A stretch of DNA of 33,509 nucleotides, from IMG/VR virus record IMGVR_UViG_2778261537_000013. The stretch is one strand, 5' to 3'. The stretch is from a virus (Duplodnaviria; Heunggongvirae; Uroviricota; Caudoviricetes). A model generated the notes under the pieces. It made no database searches, was not told the DNA's origin, and saw only the letters and a program-made list of their open reading frames with translations. This document shows positions 1-29,500 of this stretch, one piece after another; within the stretch, counting starts at the first letter, position 1, and each line of letters starts with the position of its first letter. Position numbers and translations under genes: made by a program.

Positions 1-141
1 TTACTGCTTACACTGTAAGAACGCCGCAAACTCCGCTCCCCAGAAGCTCATCCGTATTTCGCACAGTGAACCGTGCAGCATCCAGATGATGAGGATTGCC
101 GTCACGCAGAACGTGATGGCCGTAAGCGATTTTTGCGACAT
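1..141 (-). CDS. Hok/Gef-family type I toxin-like small membrane protein (46 aa)
   Basis: Not in the ORF track (<60 aa). Hand translation of the minus strand from ATG 141..139 to TAA 3..1 gives MSQKSLTAITFCVTAILIIWMLHGSLCEIRMSFWGAEFAAFLQCKQ: an N-terminal hydrophobic helix followed by an LCEIR motif, as in Hok/Gef/RelF toxins. AAGGAG lies 8 nt upstream of the ATG. Confidence 0.5.
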   Translation of the reverse strand: MSQKSLTAITFCVTAILIIWMLHGSLCEIRMSFWGAEFAAFLQCKQ

Positions 142-271
142 AGCACTTGCTCCTTTTCTGGAGAGGCGCTAACCTTTCACTTGTCAAGGTAATGCGGTTA
201 GGGCCTCGGTTAAACAGGTATGTTTTCCGGGGCCTTTCCACATCTGGCCTTCGGGTATTCCCTCCGACCAT
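8..271 (-). CDS. Mok-like overlapping reading frame covering the hok-like gene (87 codons)
   Basis: ORF-track frame 8..271 starts upstream of the hok-like ATG, reads through it in another frame and stops just past it. This is the hok/mok translational-coupling architecture; the protein itself is not recognisable. Confidence 0.3.
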   Translation of the reverse strand: MVGGNTRRPDVERPRKTYLFNRGPNRITLTSERLAPLQKRSKCYVAKIAYGHHVLRDGNPHHLDAARFTVRNTDELLGSGVCGVLTV

Positions 272-331
272 CAGCCGAAAGGCACCCGCGCGTAATCTAT
301 CGCTTTTTTGTTACTCCGGCAATTCTGCCTG

Positions 332-592
332 TTAATTCTGAGGTAAAGGCAAGCTCATCTGATTGTTTCCCCTGTGTGAAGCTGGCAGCTCATGCCACGG
401 GATACCTTCTGAAGAGTGAACGCCGGAGGCGTGTTTCGATGTGAATTTATGGAAAGCTTCCAGTGTTGAGAAGCATACGCCGCATTCCAGGTTGTTACAC
501 TGGTAATACTTTTGCCGCACAGTGTTTGAATCATTTTCCGGACGACTGGTGCGGATGCGGGCAGATGCGCCACAAAGCGGACAACGGAACAT
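332..592 (-). CDS. ogr: Ogr/Delta-family zinc-finger late-gene transcriptional activator
   Basis: N-terminus MFRCPLCGASARIRTSRPENDSNTVRQKYYQCNNLECGVCF carries the Cys-X2-Cys...Cys-X4-Cys spacing and RTSR motif of P2 Ogr. It is co-directional with D, as in P2. The 86-aa ORF is longer than the 72-aa P2 Ogr, so the C-terminal end is uncertain. Confidence 0.8.
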   Translation of the reverse strand: MFRCPLCGASARIRTSRPENDSNTVRQKYYQCNNLECGVCFSTLEAFHKFTSKHASGVHSSEGIPWHELPASHRGNNQMSLPLPQN

Positions 593-768: not shown

Positions 769-1593
769 ATGACTGACTTTAAATATCAATCTGATAGTTA
801 TGATAGACAATCACAAAAATTTGTTATTCCGCTCTACATACGAAATGAACTAGGCGATTATAATTATTCATCGACTGGAACGTTTATATATTACAAGCAA
901 TCACACTATGTGGTTTTTGCTGCTCATGCTCTGAGGGATAAAGATGACATCAGAAATATTTACATACTGGGTTCTGATGGTGAATTTTTTGCTTTGACTA
1001 GTATCTCTATAGGACATCGAATTTTTGAAGAAGATGATTTAGTCATTGTCGATTGCTTTAATATGATACTTGATGGGAAAAATTATTTCTCGCTTAAAGA
1101 TAATTTCAATTTTATTGGATTTGATAAGAAACATTTTGCATGGACAGGCTTCCCTAAAAACTGGTGCAAAACACAAACAATTCACAGAACAAAACGCCCT
1201 AGTTCAATAGTAAATCAAACGGTAGCTTCTAACGAAGATGGCCTGTTTTTTAAAAATGCCAAGTATTTCACTATAATATCCGAGGTTAAAACATTCAATA
1301 AAATTGAAATAACAGGAACATACAAGGTTAAGAATATAGATTTAAAATATAAAGGACAGGTAAGTAAAGGCCCTTCTCCAGAGGGAATGAGTGGTGGTGC
1401 AATGTATTTTTTCTCTAAGGGGCAAGAATTAAAAAAAGAACTGGAGTCAACATTTCTTTTGGCTGGAATTGGTTTGTCTTTTAAAAAAGATGGAACAATA
1501 GTGGGAATTAGCCGTTATCGTATGATTGAGCTATTTGAACAGTTTAATGAAGAATCACCTATAGAGTGTTCTCTTCATTTTCAACAAGAATAA
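769..1593 (+). CDS. Cytoplasmic trypsin/chymotrypsin-fold serine protease-like protein (AT-rich cargo)
   Basis: 274-aa ORF with no N-terminal signal peptide. Candidate catalytic triad in canonical order: His in VVFAAHAL, Asp in DDLVIVD, Ser in GPSPEGMSGGAMYF (GDSGG-like). Strongly AT-rich compared with flanking phage genes, on the opposite strand to ogr and D, with its own terminator. Confidence 0.6.
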   Translation: MTDFKYQSDSYDRQSQKFVIPLYIRNELGDYNYSSTGTFIYYKQSHYVVFAAHALRDKDDIRNIYILGSDGEFFALTSISIGHRIFEEDDLVIVDCFNMILDGKNYFSLKDNFNFIGFDKKHFAWTGFPKNWCKTQTIHRTKRPSSIVNQTVASNEDGLFFKNAKYFTIISEVKTFNKIEITGTYKVKNIDLKYKGQVSKGPSPEGMSGGAMYFFSKGQELKKELESTFLLAGIGLSFKKDGTIVGISRYRMIELFEQFNEESPIECSLHFQQE

Positions 1594-5354: not shown

Positions 5355-8148
5355 TATCCGGGTCGCTTTCAGCGCCGTTGACAGGCTGACCCGGCCTGCC
5401 GAAAACGCCCGCCGCCTGATGGGGCAGTTTGGTGACTCCATCCAGCGAACGCAGGGGGCGATCAAAAATCTCGAGCGTCAGGCGCGTTCATTTGAGCGCG
5501 CCCGCGACGCTGTCAGTAAAGCGGATGCTGGCATATTGAAAGCACGACGCCAGCTTAACGCCCTTAATCAGTTACAACGCACGGGTACAGTGCTCAGCGA
5601 AAAACAACAAAAGCTGATGCAGCAGTTAAGCACCCGGCTTGAACGCCTGAATGAATCGCGCACACGGGAAATTCAGAAAATGCGGGAGCTTGGCGGAGAG
5701 CTGAAACGCCACGGCATTTCCCTGACAGGCAGCGATAACACCATCCAGCAGGCCATCAGACGCACCGAACAGTACAACAACCAGCTTGAACGCGAACGGC
5801 AGGCGCTTGCGCGTGTAACACGGGCGCGTGAGCGGTATTCGCGCGCGCAGGAAACAGCGGGAAAACTGAAAACAGGTGGTGCGCTGGCAATTGGTGCGGC
5901 AGCGGCGGGCGGCTATGCTGCCGGGCGTTTTTTGCAGCCTGCGATCGGGTTCGGCAAAGAGATGTCCCGCGTTCAGGCACTGACGCGAATCGACAAAAAC
6001 AGCCCGCAGTTTAAGGCGCTGCGTGAGCAGGCGTTAAAACTTGGCTCTGAAACACAGTTTACTGCGAGTGATGCCGCCAGTGGGCAGAGCTTTCTGGCAA
6101 TGGCTGGTTTTACTCCGCAGGCCATTCAGGCCGCATTGCCCGGTGTTCTTAATATGGCGCTGGCAGGTGGCGTCGAACTCGGCGAGACGGCTGATATAGG
6201 CTCCAATATCCTCACACAGTTCAACCTGACAGCCGATCAAATGGACCGGGTGGGCGATACGCTGACAGCAGCATTCACCCGGACCAATACTGATTTACGC
6301 GCGCTGGGCGAAACCATGAAGTATACCGGTCCGGTTGCCGCAAAACTTGGTATCAGTCTTGAAGAAGCGGCGGCCATGGCCGGGATGCTTGCCAATAATG
6401 GTCTTCGCGGAAGCGATGCTGGCACGGCCATGCGCGCAAGTCTGTCCCGCCTTGCATCACCGCCAAAAGCTGCGGCTGATGCGCTGAAAGAGCTGGGGGT
6501 GTCAGTTGCTGACGCCAGAGGCAAAATGCGCCCGATGGAGGATGTGCTGCTTGATCTCTATAAGGCGACACAAAAATACGGACAGGTGGACCAGGTTTCC
6601 TTCTTCAAGGACATCGCCGGAGAAGAGGCGTTTGTTGGTTTACAGACGCTTGTTGCAGCGGCTGGTTCAGGAGAGCTGCAAAAACTGACCAGAGAATTGC
6701 AGGGGGCAAGGGGAGAGGCCGATCGCGTTGCAAAAGTAATGGCCGATAATCTTGATGGTGACCTGAAAAATCTCGACAGCGCATGGGAAGGTCTTCGTAT
6801 TCGCATCAGTGATCTGGTTGACGGTCCGCTGCGTTCTGTCACGCAGTGGCTCACGCGGGTACTTGAAAAAATCACCTCGCTGGCGCAGGCCCATCCGGTA
6901 CTGACGCGCCAGCTACTGATAGCAGGCGGTGCGTTGCTGGCAATGACTGCAACGATTGGCTCGTTGTCACTGGTTATTGGGGTGCTTTACGGGAAGCTGG
7001 CCACCCTGCGTCTTGGTTTCGAAATTCTTACCCGGTCAATGAATGTTGTCAGAGTGTTGCCTGCGTTATGGGGAATGGTGACGGGGTCCGTTTCTTTACT
7101 GGGAGGCGCTATCGGGGCGTTGTTCAGTCCGGTCGGTCTTATCGTGGCTGCGCTTGCCGGAGCTGCCGTTCTCATCTGGAAATACTGGGATCCCATCAGG
7201 GCATTTTTTGCCGGGGTGTTCAGCGGGATTATGGAAAGGCTGACCCCGTTGCGCGAAACCTTTGAACGGTTTGGCCCTGTTTTTGACGCAATCGGAAGCG
7301 GGATCAGCCAGGTGTTTAACTGGTTTAAATCGCTGTTGTCACCGATGGAGTCCAGCAAGGAAACGCTGGATAAATGTACCAGTGCTGGCGAGATATTCGG
7401 TAACGTTCTTGGTGGCGCGCTACAGCTTGTTCTGACGCCTGCAAAAATGTTGCTGGATACGCTGGCGTGGATACTTGAAAAACTCGGTGTGCTTCCGGAT
7501 GAAGCGGAAAGGGCGAGAAAGAAAATCGAAGACGCACAGCGTGCGGCCATTCTTCAGGACAAGGTTGCTCTGTTTCAGGGAGACATTGCGAAAATCAATC
7601 CGCCGAAGTCTGCGGAAAATGGCAATGGCACCGGAGGCGATAAACCCAAAGACAACAAACCGCTCACAGACAGCAATACCGGCACGTTACGCAGACTCAG
7701 CAAAATTGCTGATAACACAGGTAAGCTGGTTGATGAGACGAAAAAACGCATTGGCCCCGGCGATATTGTCTTTAAGAACCTGCCCCGCGCACTTGCTGTT
7801 CGTGGGGAGTGGCAGGAGCGGAAGATTGCACAGGTCAGTAAGCCTGCCCCCGCAATTAATATCACCCCCGTGGTCCCGGCTCCGCTGCCTCCGGCGCTGG
7901 TCCCTGTTGTTGCGGCCAGCTCCCGCCCGGTGGCGGAGGCCATACGATCTCCAGTGGCATCAGTTCCTGTAACTTCCCGTAACCGGGAGCCTGTTGCCTC
8001 CGGATTTGGTGGTGAAATTCATGTTCATCTGCATAACGTTGTTACGCAGAATCCCCGCGAACTGGCGAAACTGGTCGGTGAAATGGTCAGGGCAGAATTG
8101 GAACGACGCGACCGTGCCGGACGTGGCAGTTTTTACGATAAAGATTGA
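5341..8148 (+). CDS. T: Tail tape measure protein gpT
   Basis: About 936 aa with an N-terminal coiled-coil region, a central alanine/glycine-rich segment and hydrophobic stretches, in the position after E/E'. Start chosen at ATG 5341 (MKTLDIR); in-frame alternatives at 5305 and 5332 cannot be excluded. Confidence 0.85.
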   Translation: MKTLDIRVAFSAVDRLTRPAENARRLMGQFGDSIQRTQGAIKNLERQARSFERARDAVSKADAGILKARRQLNALNQLQRTGTVLSEKQQKLMQQLSTRLERLNESRTREIQKMRELGGELKRHGISLTGSDNTIQQAIRRTEQYNNQLERERQALARVTRARERYSRAQETAGKLKTGGALAIGAAAAGGYAAGRFLQPAIGFGKEMSRVQALTRIDKNSPQFKALREQALKLGSETQFTASDAASGQSFLAMAGFTPQAIQAALPGVLNMALAGGVELGETADIGSNILTQFNLTADQMDRVGDTLTAAFTRTNTDLRALGETMKYTGPVAAKLGISLEEAAAMAGMLANNGLRGSDAGTAMRASLSRLASPPKAAADALKELGVSVADARGKMRPMEDVLLDLYKATQKYGQVDQVSFFKDIAGEEAFVGLQTLVAAAGSGELQKLTRELQGARGEADRVAKVMADNLDGDLKNLDSAWEGLRIRISDLVDGPLRSVTQWLTRVLEKITSLAQAHPVLTRQLLIAGGALLAMTATIGSLSLVIGVLYGKLATLRLGFEILTRSMNVVRVLPALWGMVTGSVSLLGGAIGALFSPVGLIVAALAGAAVLIWKYWDPIRAFFAGVFSGIMERLTPLRETFERFGPVFDAIGSGISQVFNWFKSLLSPMESSKETLDKCTSAGEIFGNVLGGALQLVLTPAKMLLDTLAWILEKLGVLPDEAERARKKIEDAQRAAILQDKVALFQGDIAKINPPKSAENGNGTGGDKPKDNKPLTDSNTGTLRRLSKIADNTGKLVDETKKRIGPGDIVFKNLPRALAVRGEWQERKIAQVSKPAPAINITPVVPAPLPPALVPVVAASSRPVAEAIRSPVASVPVTSRNREPVASGFGGEIHVHLHNVVTQNPRELAKLVGEMVRAELERRDRAGRGSFYDKD

Positions 8149-9424: not shown

Positions 9425-10000
9425 TTGTGGGGCGACTGGCCACTCAATATCTGCTGCTACTGTTGTATCAACACGATTCAACAATACTCGATATGTCTTC
9501 CATGCTGCCAGTAACGATGCCTCTTCCTCCGTCGCAATATCCAAATCTATAGCATCCTGAAGTGGTGCAATATGCTCACTGGCTACCTGCATCAGGCTGT
9601 TTTTTGTTTCTTCCGCCTCCCTTATCCGAAATAGTTTTTCTGCTTCTGCATCTTTCACCCAGGATGTGCCGTTCCACTTCTGATACTCTCCATACGGCGA
9701 CAACCAGGTAACATTTTCCGGTAACGGACCGAGTTCAGAAATAAATAACGAGTCCCCTGATGCCACGTCATAAACCGTTTTACCCCGATGGTCTTCCACG
9801 AGATGCCACGATGCCTCATCACTGTTGAAAACGGCCACGAAGCCAGCCGGAATATCTGGCGGGGCAATATCGGTACTGTTTGCAGGCAGACCTGTATGAG
9901 GTGGAATGTATGCATCACCTTCACCAATAAACTCATTGGTTCCGGTCAGTAGATTATAAATTTTTATGGTCCGTGATTGTTCACTCATTCTGAATGTCAT
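9422..10000 (-). CDS. G: Tail fiber assembly protein (gpG-like)
   Basis: 192 aa directly downstream of the tail fiber gene with an overlapping stop/start; size and position match P2 G. Confidence 0.8.
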
Positions 10001-24331: not shown

Positions 24332-24640
24332 TTATTCGGGAAATAACGCCCGGATATTCCCGGCCATCTGGCTGGTTATCTGTGTGGTTGGTACTGGTTG
24401 TGGCGCGTTCTGTTCTACTCTGTTTTGTACCACGGCCAACTCATCGTCAGCCCATGCAGCCAGTCGGTAAGCCTCTGCCGGATTCATTTTCAGAAGTGCC
24501 AGCCCGGCCAGAAAAGCCACGCGTTGGCCGCTTTTGCGGGCTTCTGGTGTAAGGCTGTCCAGCCAGGCGCATGCTTCGCCTTCGTTCTTGACGGCGGCGG
24601 GCTTCAGATAGAAACTTATCCGTCTGGTTGGTGTCGTCAT
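24332..24640 (-). CDS. parR: ParR-like partition adaptor (centromere-binding protein)
   Basis: 102 aa from ATG 24640 (preceded by AAGGAG, 5 nt after the parM stop). RRISFYLKPAAV...LDSLTPEARKSGQRVAFLAGLAL...NIRALFPE parallels recalled plasmid R1 ParR (RRTIAFKLNPDV...LDSIP.GERS...ALTAGLAL...LRSLFP). Confidence 0.65.
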   Translation of the reverse strand: MTTPTRRISFYLKPAAVKNEGEACAWLDSLTPEARKSGQRVAFLAGLALLKMNPAEAYRLAAWADDELAVVQNRVEQNAPQPVPTTQITSQMAGNIRALFPE

Positions 24641-24644
24641 TGGT

Positions 24645-25604
24645 TTACTCCTTGTCCATTGCGTACAGCCCATTAACCAGAGCAAACTGTGGCACCCCGT
24701 CCGCGATGAAAGTCGCATTAACTCCGCAGGCTTCGCGGATAGCGGGTGCCACAATCTCCGCCCCTCCACCGACAACCATCACCCGCCCGTAACCCGAAAA
24801 AACCGCCAGCGCGCGGATCACGCGTTGTTTCAGTGTTTCTTCCTTTTCACGAATAACCGCCATCAGGCTGGCGTAATGCGCGTCATTGTGGATGTGCTGG
24901 CGCAGCCAGGCTTCATCATGGCGATGTTCGATAATGGTATTGGCGATGTGGTGACTGGTGCGCATACCGTTAGTGGCCATCACCGACAGTACGGCATCGG
25001 CCATCAGAGAAACGCCTACGTGTGGATCGCAAAACACCTGGCTGATACCTGCCAGTTGCCCCTGAACCTTTGCCACATCCAGCGTGGTTCCGCCCAAATC
25101 CACAATCAGCAGGGATTCAAACGGACTCATGTCAGCCAGTGCCTTAAAGCCAGCCGGAATGGATTCAGGCATAACCCGCACGTTACGGATAGTGAATGCT
25201 TCGCCGTTCTGGTACTCCACCGGGCGCATAACGTTCGCTTTTTTGCGGTTGATGTTGGCCATGTCCGGCTGTGCGTTTGTGTCGAAATACTCGCTCAGTG
25301 GCAGGGTGACAACCACATCCACCTCCTGTGGCGTGATGCCTGATTTGACCAGCGCGTGATGAATGGCAATGACATTCACATCGCTGTATTGGTATTGCGT
25401 GTCGGTTGTCTGGACAAAGCGATCGCTGACCGGATCAAAACCATAGCGCACGCCATCAAGCATGTAGTTCGCGGGCTGCATGCCACCGAACGGCGCAGAC
25501 CATTCCGACTTGAAGCTGTTCGGGCTGATGGCGTTGCGGCGTTCGCCGTTCTCAGTCCATGCCAGCTTGATGTTGGTGGAGCCGTCGTCGATACAAATTT
25601 TCAT
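24645..25604 (-). CDS. parM: ParM/StbA-family actin-like segregation ATPase
   Basis: 319 aa with ParM hallmark motifs in order: MKICIDDGSTNIKLAW, SPNSF, YSDVNVIAIHHAL, VMPESIPAG, LIVDLGGTTLD, GVSL, VMVVGGGAEI, LVNGLY. Confidence 0.85.
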   Translation of the reverse strand: MKICIDDGSTNIKLAWTENGERRNAISPNSFKSEWSAPFGGMQPANYMLDGVRYGFDPVSDRFVQTTDTQYQYSDVNVIAIHHALVKSGITPQEVDVVVTLPLSEYFDTNAQPDMANINRKKANVMRPVEYQNGEAFTIRNVRVMPESIPAGFKALADMSPFESLLIVDLGGTTLDVAKVQGQLAGISQVFCDPHVGVSLMADAVLSVMATNGMRTSHHIANTIIEHRHDEAWLRQHIHNDAHYASLMAVIREKEETLKQRVIRALAVFSGYGRVMVVGGGAEIVAPAIREACGVNATFIADGVPQFALVNGLYAMDKE

Positions 25605-29178: not shown

Positions 29179-29500
29179 GGTGTGGCCTCTGTAGTTGCAA
29201 GTTTTGAAAACTCACCATCCAGAGGTGGAAAACTCGGGGTGGTGAGACGTACAGGGTTTCCACAACCGGCAACTACAGAACCCGGCCCGACCGAAGTCGG
29301 CCCCGTACGCCCCACCATAATTCGTGTGCGAAAAAGACGTGGCGATACAGTACGCACAAAAAAACCGCTGGCGCGGTTGTGCGCTGTAGTTGTCAGCGGG
29401 GTGGAAATCCCGGCACCCGTTTTATGAGGTGCAGCGGAAATGTAACCTGACTGATTGCGGCATGGCAAGCGGTTTTTTTGTGTGTGCATGTTCTGGTTTC
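29179..29500. promoter_or_regulatory. Repeat-rich structured noncoding region inside the early operon (candidate regulatory, origin or small-RNA region)
   Basis: No convincing ORF. CTGTAGTTG occurs three times (29189 and 29384 direct, 29270 inverted), including an 11-bp perfect inverted repeat tctgtagttgc / gcaactacaga 70 bp apart; GGTGGAAA occurs twice; a GGCCGAC/GTCGGCC hairpin is present. Confidence 0.4.
29358..29378 (-). terminator. Candidate intrinsic terminator on the minus strand within the structured region
   Basis: On the minus strand a 6-bp stem aaccgc / gcggtt with a 4-nt loop is followed by a run of seven T. Confidence 0.5.

Follow-up and report, generated by a model that had tools for sequence, protein, structure and literature searches.

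A probable hok/sok-type toxin–antitoxin module carried as cargo at one end of P88-like prophages

Introduction

In the hok/sok (parB) system of plasmid R1, the hok mRNA folds back on itself by pairing of its tac and fbi elements, and the hok Shine–Dalgarno (SD) sequence lies in a hairpin, which is the reason that mok must be translated for hok to be translated (PMC9841398). Phages carry such systems as well: hokW-sokW of Sakai prophage 5 (Sp5) has been established experimentally as a type I toxin–antitoxin (TA) module (Takada et al. 2021, PMC8621323). According to a recent catalogue of Hok toxins, prophages are enriched in hok genes by a factor of about four (Escalera-Maurer et al., bioRxiv 10.1101/2025.08.07.668861).

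Here we analyse the left end of a 33,509-nt stretch of Caudoviricetes DNA (IMG/VR record IMGVR_UViG_2778261537_000013), which we refer to as the window. The original prediction placed a Hok/Mok-like type I toxin locus in its first 331 nt. We find that the locus is real and is already catalogued as a hok/sok TA module. We read it, with good confidence, as an accessory module that a P88-like prophage carries as cargo at its ogr-attP end.

Results

The left edge of the window encodes a Hok/Gef-family peptide

Two features define the toxin gene.

1–141, minus strand: hok coding sequence, 46 amino acids plus stop; the stop codon at 3–1 is the window's first triplet.
150–153, minus strand: hok SD sequence GGAG, 8 nt 5' of the ATG and kept in 17 of 18 aligned relatives.

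The encoded peptide is MSQKSLTAITFCVTAILIIWMLHGSLCEIRMSFWGAEFAAFLQCKQ. A hydrophobic stretch spans residues 6–22, and the motif SLCEIR occupies residues 25–30, within which C27 and E28 are invariant across the Hok cluster alignment. The LCEIR motif of Hok/Gef toxins had been picked out in this ORF from the sequence, and family profiles agree. The Pfam HOK_GEF profile (PF01848) scores the peptide at 29.9 bits, above its cutoff of 22 (E 4e-7), and aligns residues 7–44 with profile positions 5–42 of 42, and PHROG phrog_251, 'MokW-like host killing', matches at E 1e-22. The HOK_GEF score exceeds the curated gathering threshold. The wider reading of a Hok-family type I toxin locus is supported as well. 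RefSeq names the exact peptide 'Hok/Gef family protein', and the P88 record carries the note 'hok/gef family protein'. Narrower models fit less well: the peptide scores 34 bits against the cutoff of 89 for the NCBIfam HokA equivalog NF007290, and 21.6 against 73 for the NCBIfam Hok subfamily NF007279. One source names it 'protein HokA', an identity that we rejected given the NF007290 score far under its cutoff.

We gathered 5 genome loci and 80 viral loci related to this one, all of the viral loci encoding the identical peptide. Of 83 related loci, 82 have an intact hok ORF, and the exact peptide occurs on at least 1000 contigs. Variable hok columns in 12 close relatives are distributed 1/1/13 over the three codon positions, and dN/dS among close relatives lies between 0 and 0.4. 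Third-position variation and low dN/dS together indicate that selection acts on the hok frame. These comparisons show the 46-aa product to be a Hok/Gef-family membrane peptide under purifying selection.

The same peptide appears in the recent Hok catalogue as unique sequence 1621 of cluster 72 (construct 72_1621), cloned as LRP137 for arabinose-induced toxicity assays in E. coli. Of 45 Hok constructs, 42 were toxic; the only non-toxic ones were 19_179, 60_1482 and 69_1540, and 72_1621 is not named among them (bioRxiv 10.1101/2025.08.07.668861). The toxicity evidence for 72_1621 is thus that of a preprint in which only the coding sequence was over-expressed. Its Table S2 gives a predicted SD of 'GGAGC' for this construct. 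By design, the cluster 72 work covered only the Hok coding sequence and left Sok, mok and mRNA structure unannotated; nor does the preprint name P2-like phages or the ogr-att position where the present locus sits (bioRxiv 10.1101/2025.08.07.668861).

The locus lies inside a P88-like prophage

The toxin locus adjoins the ogr gene at the left edge of the window, as predicted.

332–592, minus strand: ogr, late-gene activator (Pfam Ogr_Delta, 52 bits; RefSeq annotation of the TUM1880 locus).

We extended the locus leftwards through E. coli TUM1880, which is 99.9% identical over window nt 1–700 and in which the hok-ogr block lies between ihfA and a P2-type late region. TUM1880 coordinates fit the window only at its left end. 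A 25-bp att core, GGCCGCTCTGCGGCCTTTTTTCTTT, which is the ihfA terminator, is present twice in TUM1880, 36.5 kb apart. K-12 has one copy of this core in a 100-bp ihfA-btuC spacer without hok, and joining the two lysogen junctions reconstitutes the K-12 sequence. The element is a P88-like prophage (Xuanwuvirus, P2-family, Peduoviridae), and its junctions place it between ihfA and btuC. The hok stop codon lies 263 bp inward of the left core copy, and hok is therefore prophage DNA.

This arrangement bears out the cargo reading and refutes the alternative put forward with it, in which the locus is resident host DNA that merely marks the prophage junction. That idea drew on the position of the locus at the extreme edge of the window and on the several hok loci carried by E. 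coli chromosomes. We find it hardly credible for a locus that lies between the two core copies, when the spacer in K-12 holds a single core and no hok. The hok-ogr block is also found in the phage records P88, Chuche, PhiR44_2, 500465-2 and P884B11. One database entry labelled a plasmid, a circular molecule of 34.5 kb, proves to be a complete P88-like genome with the hok block between ogr and int.

The block is common, occurring in 1158 of 5426 complete E. coli genomes, about a fifth, and ogr lies directly upstream of hok in 70 of 80 IMG/VR loci. Chuche and the 34.5-kb circular molecule have a com/methyltransferase pair in the stretch from hok to int, so the ogr-attP interval behaves as a cargo slot. 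A ParM and a StbB/ParR-type protein are encoded at 24332–25604 (minus strand), as read from the window's own ORFs. The predicted co-occurrence of a ParMR module with hok thus holds, and with this pair beside the hok locus the element has both kinds of R1-type stability genes. Our search of the literature on hok in P88 or Xuanwuvirus returned nothing specific.

The window itself starts at the stop codon of hok and ends at that of int, and so represents a gene-bounded prophage call. Exactly the same left-hand base ends 47 of the 80 IMG/VR contigs. About 120 nt of the hok mRNA 3' end, comprising a stem-loop, fbi and the terminator, lie beyond this edge.

The hok mRNA is predicted to fold back on itself

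We reconstructed the hok mRNA by taking its 3' part, beyond the window, from the 99.9%-identical TUM1880 locus, and derived the promoter and leader anatomy from aligned relatives with unrelated upstream DNA. Helix conservation was scored on 18 non-redundant relatives, with the tested structures derived from one aligned member. The leader and its elements are as follows.

294–322, minus strand: predicted hok promoter, with −35 TTGCCG at 322–317, a 17-nt spacer and −10 TAGATT at 299–294.
142–287, minus strand: hok mRNA 5' leader, with predicted start at 287 (GGGUGCC...), where position 1 of the Rfam RF01794 model aligns.
273–287, minus strand: tac element (mRNA +1 to +15), predicted to pair with fbi in the full RNA and with ucb after 3' trimming.
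229–241, minus strand: ucb-like box (mRNA +47 to +59), the alternative tac partner; the Rfam consensus structure has the same stem.
141–171, minus strand: hok SD/anti-SD hairpin (mRNA +117 to +147) in the minimum-free-energy fold.

The position and hexamers of the hok promoter are kept in relatives whose upstream DNA is unrelated, and the 5' end at 287 is of the same sequence type as those of hokC and R1-type hok mRNAs. A generic scan for promoters and terminators brought neither this promoter nor that predicted for Sok (below) to its sigma-70 threshold and left the Sok hairpin unflagged; homology and conservation are the basis for predicting all three.

With predicted ends at 287 and at an intrinsic terminator 120 nt left of the window, the full hok mRNA would be 408 nt long. 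This RNA folds at −177.6 kcal/mol, compared with −129 ± 5 kcal/mol for shuffled sequences (z = −9.3). In both the minimum-free-energy and centroid folds, nt 1–15 pair with nt 337–352, placing the fbi box, read from the TUM1880 locus, about 60 nt left of the window. Across the 18 sequences, the tac/fbi pairing is kept in 95.5% of cells, with one-sided changes and one two-sided change; S. diarizonae has a different tac/fbi extension that is still paired. In predicted folds of the RNA cut at +336 or +320, tac re-pairs with +47 to +59 and a new hairpin forms at +81 to +125; the fold of the RNA cut at +330 does not show this. The tac/ucb stem is paired in 99.1% of cells, in nearly invariant columns.

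Overall, the full-length and truncated helix sets are kept in 92–95% of cells, compared with 27–55% when the partners are slid. With a leader this conserved, and with structures taken from one of the aligned sequences, the result amounts to compatibility and not strong covariation. Most leader helices rest on invariance or one-sided changes and not on compensatory ones. Diversity for covariation is limited, since the 80 viral loci encode an identical peptide and only 5 genome loci were available. The clearest case is a 3' stem-loop directly after the hok stop codon, outside the window. Its 9-bp stem has 4 of 9 pairs changed on both sides and is paired in 99.4% of cells, against 44–72% when slid. 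It is the counterpart of the protective 3' end found in processed hok mRNAs.

The SD/anti-SD hairpin is paired in 94.9% of cells among the 18 sequences, and in each of the three modelled states the predicted pairing of the hok SD exceeds 84%. In ensemble predictions, SD accessibility is 0.00–0.16 after truncation compared with 0.00–0.02 before. A scheme in which truncation frees the SD and Sok re-closes it goes in the right direction in most sequences; the effect is tiny, and we make no claim for it. A rise in accessibility this small does not account for the activation step.

A putative Sok-type antisense gene can be placed on the opposite strand

The original prediction had not positively identified a Sok-like antisense RNA gene. 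An Rfam search of the window at the gathering threshold returned no hok/sok element; a search of 800 nt gave a match under that threshold.

128–287, minus strand: match to Rfam RF01794 ('sok'), 48.2 bits against a gathering score of 59, E 1.3e-9 in the 800-nt search.

Because RF01794 models the hok leader in its sense orientation, the Sok gene is to be expected on the opposite strand within 287–128. There we predict the following.

147–175, plus strand: predicted Sok promoter, with −35 TTGCTC at 147–152, a 17-nt spacer and −10 TAACCT at 170–175.
About 182–238, plus strand: predicted Sok RNA of about 57 nt, either end of which may be a few nt off; it has a terminator-type hairpin at 200–236.

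The promoter is present in 18 of 18 relatives as TTGCTC or TTGACT, a spacer of 17–18 nt, and TAACCT or TACCCT, and it occupies the same position as in R1-type and hokC loci. The predicted RNA is complementary to hok mRNA +50 to +106, close to the arrangement in K-12, where annotated sokC faces hokC mRNA +44 to +102. Its hairpin is stabler on the plus strand in all 18 relatives, at −22 to −31 kcal/mol compared with −15 to −20 kcal/mol on the hok strand, and in 17 of them a C·A mismatch on the hok strand corresponds to a G·U pair on the Sok strand. Two variants of the hairpin occur, each fully paired. The 5' tail is single-stranded and is the most variable part of the locus, and the hairpin is trailed by three U only. 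On homology and conservation, a Sok-type antisense gene is thus predicted at about 182–238 on the plus strand, although the covariance-model match falls below the gathering score.

With both genes placed, we considered whether the locus might be a decaying, non-functional remnant of hok. Several chromosomal hok loci of K-12 are inactivated, and in L007, a relative on an E. albertii plasmid, codon 2 is a stop and the 3' untranslated region (3'UTR) is degraded. Decay of the present locus is nonetheless very improbable. Purifying selection and an ORF interrupted in a single related locus speak against it, as does the conservation of both promoters, tac/fbi, the 3' stem-loop and the Sok hairpin. 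The absence of 72_1621 from the preprint's three non-toxic constructs points the same way (bioRxiv 10.1101/2025.08.07.668861).

A mok frame is not conserved among relatives

A second frame overlaps hok.

8–271, minus strand: 87-aa out-of-frame ORF with an ATG start, in the −1 frame; probably not a gene.

The original prediction took hok to be fully overlapped by a longer out-of-frame ORF and saw in this the architecture of hok/mok loci. The open frame exists, although it covers all of hok except the last 7 nt. As hok/mok architecture it does not hold up across the 83 related loci, a set made up mostly of loci with the identical Hok peptide. An uninterrupted frame reaching from before +101 through hok occurs in only 30 of them. 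A stop at +227/228 ends it in 31, and in the other 22 it is closed between +104 and +131, past all of the candidate starts. Many of the loci with an interrupted mok frame encode the identical Hok peptide. No plausible mok start was found in any frame in 933W, in L005, L008 and L009, or in a 98%-identical Salmonella locus (L016). Some of these have no ATG, GTG, TTG, CTG or ATH codon at all 5' of the hok ATG; the remainder offer just one near-cognate or SD-proximal codon, in a frame with a stop near the beginning of hok. Neither Pfam nor PHROG matches the 87-aa product, whose exact sequence is absent from a collection of 15 billion proteins. Judged by these alignments, this Hok subfamily differs from R1 in having no conserved mok leader ORF.

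An R1-style hok/mok/sok arrangement would instead have the frame translated from a UUG at 187–185, an AUU at 193–191 or the ATG at 271, with leader translation opening the SD hairpin and Sok blocking that ORF. In the present sequence no stop interrupts the frame between a point 5' of the transcription start and its end 7 nt short of the hok stop. The hok SD is sequestered by a hairpin, as it is in R1, where mok must be translated to open that hairpin (PMC9841398). The UUG and the AUU both fall within the stretch complementary to Sok, an arrangement shared with the mokC start of K-12, and a conserved GAGG sits at the place of the R1 mok SD. The spacing of this GAGG is poor, at 10 nt from the AUU and 16 nt from the UUG. 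Set against the interruptions of the frame in relatives, the loci that offer no start and a product without any family or database counterpart, these resemblances leave an R1-style arrangement rather unlikely.

Plausible, though somewhat less likely than not, is a reading of cluster 72 as a mok-less hok/sok variant in which Hok is uncoupled from a leader ORF and Sok exerts its control by another route. Possible routes for such a mok-less system include RNase III-type cleavage and decay alone, refolding that re-closes the SD hairpin, or a GTG mini-ORF. The last of these is a conserved three-codon ORF, GTG-NNN-GGT-TAG (window 180–169), which ends 5 nt before the anti-SD. Its conservation is equally explicable by overlap with the Sok promoter. 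A literature search for mok-less hok loci found nothing specific.

Discussion

A probable type I module in the cargo slot of a prophage

The locus is most probably a functional type I TA of the hok/sok kind, with a toxin mRNA that fold-back silences and that becomes active slowly, and with Sok as its cis-antisense RNA. We propose a model built from homology, conservation and folding. A weak promoter just 3' of ogr would make the hok mRNA of about 408 nt, in which tac pairs with fbi in the 3'UTR and the hok SD is locked in its local hairpin. Slow trimming of the 3' end to the conserved stem-loop would let the 5' end re-pair with ucb and expose the Sok target. Sok, at about 57 nt, would then pair with mRNA +50 to +106 and block Hok synthesis for as long as the element is present and transcribed. 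Such a module would most likely act selfishly, keeping the prophage in place through the death of cells in which it is lost or no longer transcribed. By analogy with R1, hok/sok-mediated post-segregational killing and ParMR may form a pair, here in an integrating phage. Superinfection exclusion or help with lysis are possible side effects.

Could defence be the main job? P2-like phages are known carriers of defence cargo. Under abortive infection, a lytic phage would stop host transcription, Sok would decay and Hok would kill the cell before progeny are released. R1 hok/sok is reported to exclude T4 (Pecota and Wood 1996), and the enrichment of hok in prophages (bioRxiv 10.1101/2025.08.07.668861) fits such a role. 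However, no PADLOC model matches the Hok peptide, and in the preprint's analysis hok genes are not enriched in the neighbourhood of defence systems (bioRxiv 10.1101/2025.08.07.668861). We regard abortive infection as an unlikely principal function.

A role in the phage's own lysis or release upon induction has a precedent in Sp5, where deleting hokW-sokW halved phage release after mitomycin C (PMC8621323). A distance of 10 nt separates the ogr stop codon from the −35 hexamer of hok, and a terminator scan detected no terminator-like site between the two genes. With hok directly downstream of ogr in this way, induction could raise hok transcription. Yet Sp5 HokW belongs to another cluster (28% identity) and another phage type, and P2-family phages have a full holin/endolysin/Rz set. 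P2-type prophages are also classically not SOS-inducible. Since hokW differs in both cluster and leader, the lysis or release role described for Sp5 is not simply transferable, and we think it quite unlikely to be the main function here. Stabilisation of the prophage remains our preferred reading of this cargo.

As a discovery, the locus carries little weight: it is annotated as Hok/Gef, occurs in roughly a fifth of E. coli genomes and encodes a peptide from a published toxicity catalogue. Our analysis adds its settlement as phage cargo in the ogr-attP slot, together with coordinates for the predicted Sok gene and regulatory RNA elements. It also draws attention to a consequence of gene-bounded prophage calls, which in the window and in 47 of 80 IMG/VR contigs lose the part of the mRNA that keeps the toxin silent. 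Finally, the textbook third gene, mok, is not conserved in the aligned subfamily, which raises a small mechanistic question for type I TA biology.

Comparison with named hok systems

Among chromosomal systems, hokC/mokC/sokC (gef) of K-12 shares the leader layout, and the RF01794 consensus resembles the hokC leader. It differs in its peptide (26% identity), its chromosomal location and its flanking IS186. There, mokC is annotated as an in-frame N-terminal extension of hokC, whereas the 87-aa ORF here is out of frame.

The PHROG name 'MokW-like host killing' derives from hokW-sokW, and we considered equating the present locus with that system in Sp5. We rejected this on the basis of the Sp5 primers and peptide, which show a different leader and Hok cluster. 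Unlike the present peptide, HokW of Sp5 has 51 aa and falls in a HokD/RelF-like cluster.

The closest phage relative is a second hok locus, next to lom in 933W and in Sp5/VT2-Sakai; it is left unannotated in many records. This lom-adjacent locus has about 82% DNA identity over window 2–308, and its peptide (72_1589, also among those tested in the preprint) is 74% identical to the present one. The leader, Sok promoter, tac/fbi and 3' stem-loop are shared. The carrier is a lambdoid phage, unlike here, and there is no upstream start codon in any frame.

For R1 hok/sok, blastn of the whole locus against plasmids did not reach an R1-type locus, the DNA being too diverged, and we retrieved one for comparison by tblastn. 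The two systems have in common a small single-helix Hok/Gef peptide with SLCEIR and an mRNA of about 400 nt. As predicted for the present locus, tac pairs in both with an fbi box upstream of the terminator, a 3' stem-loop follows the stop codon, and the hok SD is buried in a local hairpin; the tac–ucb alternative of R1 may have a counterpart here. Each also has a Sok, here a predicted one, of about 60 nt from an antisense promoter in the leader, with a hairpin that is G·U on the Sok strand and C·A on the hok strand. The peptides are 33% identical, the present one being 6 residues shorter. What sets the present locus apart from R1 is that it has no conserved mok frame and is carried by an integrating phage, where R1 is a plasmid.

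Transcription and the window edge

In window 288-334, no site resembling a terminator separates the ogr stop codon (332-334) from the hok promoter. The first minus-strand terminator downstream of the late-gene activator ogr is hok's own, which lies beyond the window (7887-7914 in related locus L001). The whole hok locus is probably read through by ogr transcripts. Position 1 of the window falls precisely at the hok stop codon, as do the ends of 47 of the 80 hok-bearing IMG/VR contigs (L019-L098). Gene-bounded prophage trimming cuts away the att core together with the hok 3'UTR, including the 3' stem-loop, fbi and the terminator.

Other genes and RNAs of the prophage

Several further features were annotated in the window:

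769-1593, plus strand: 274-aa ORF inside a low-GC island (~650-1900)
9459-9657, minus strand: IS009, full-length Rfam match (186 bits; gathering score 117)
24332-25604, minus strand: ParM and StbB/ParR-type genes (Pfam for ParM)
29235-29322, minus strand: C4 antisense RNA (Rfam, 80.5 bits, above gathering score)
29358-29432, minus strand: isrK (Rfam, 63.6 bits, above gathering score)

The 274-aa ORF is an orphan cargo gene. Its island, with a GC content of 30-36%, is inserted between ogr and the tail gene D; the ORF is missing from phages P88, Chuche and PhiR44_2, in all three of which D directly adjoins ogr. Searches of Pfam, NCBIfam, PADLOC and PDB sequences returned zero matches to the ORF, and its PHROG match was only marginal. 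By eye, we spotted AAHA and GMSGGA motifs, which are reminiscent of trypsin-like serine proteases.

ParM is an actin-like segregation ATPase (Pfam StbA_N, 275 bits; ParM C-terminal domain, 231 bits), partnered by a StbB/ParR-type 'plasmid stability protein'. This pair adjoins the replication endonuclease gene, in an integrating P2-family phage. The E. coli circular 'plasmid' NZ_CP148288.1 (34,461 bp) is, over its whole record, a complete P88-like phage genome carrying int, cox, hok, ogr, ParM/StbB and a com/methyltransferase pair placed between hok and int. The molecule represents either an episomal state or a phage circle, excised or replicating, that the assembly captured.

Among the RNA matches, C4 antisense RNA and isrK are adjacent in the prophage early region (29235-29432, minus strand), and IS009 is located in the tail-fibre/invertase region.

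Relatives of hok in other records

The same E. coli-type hok locus, with 98% peptide identity, also turns up in L014 and L015, whose assemblies bear the labels Planococcaceae (a MAG) and Vagococcus sp.; contamination or mis-binning is the most likely cause. The subfamily of the window hok is also represented in Stx phages, by a second hok locus found in phage 933W as follows:

L004 401-709: second hok locus, adjoining lom

The 933W locus is devoid of an upstream start codon for a mok. Left without annotation in many records, this second Stx-phage locus differs from the studied hokW-sokW module.
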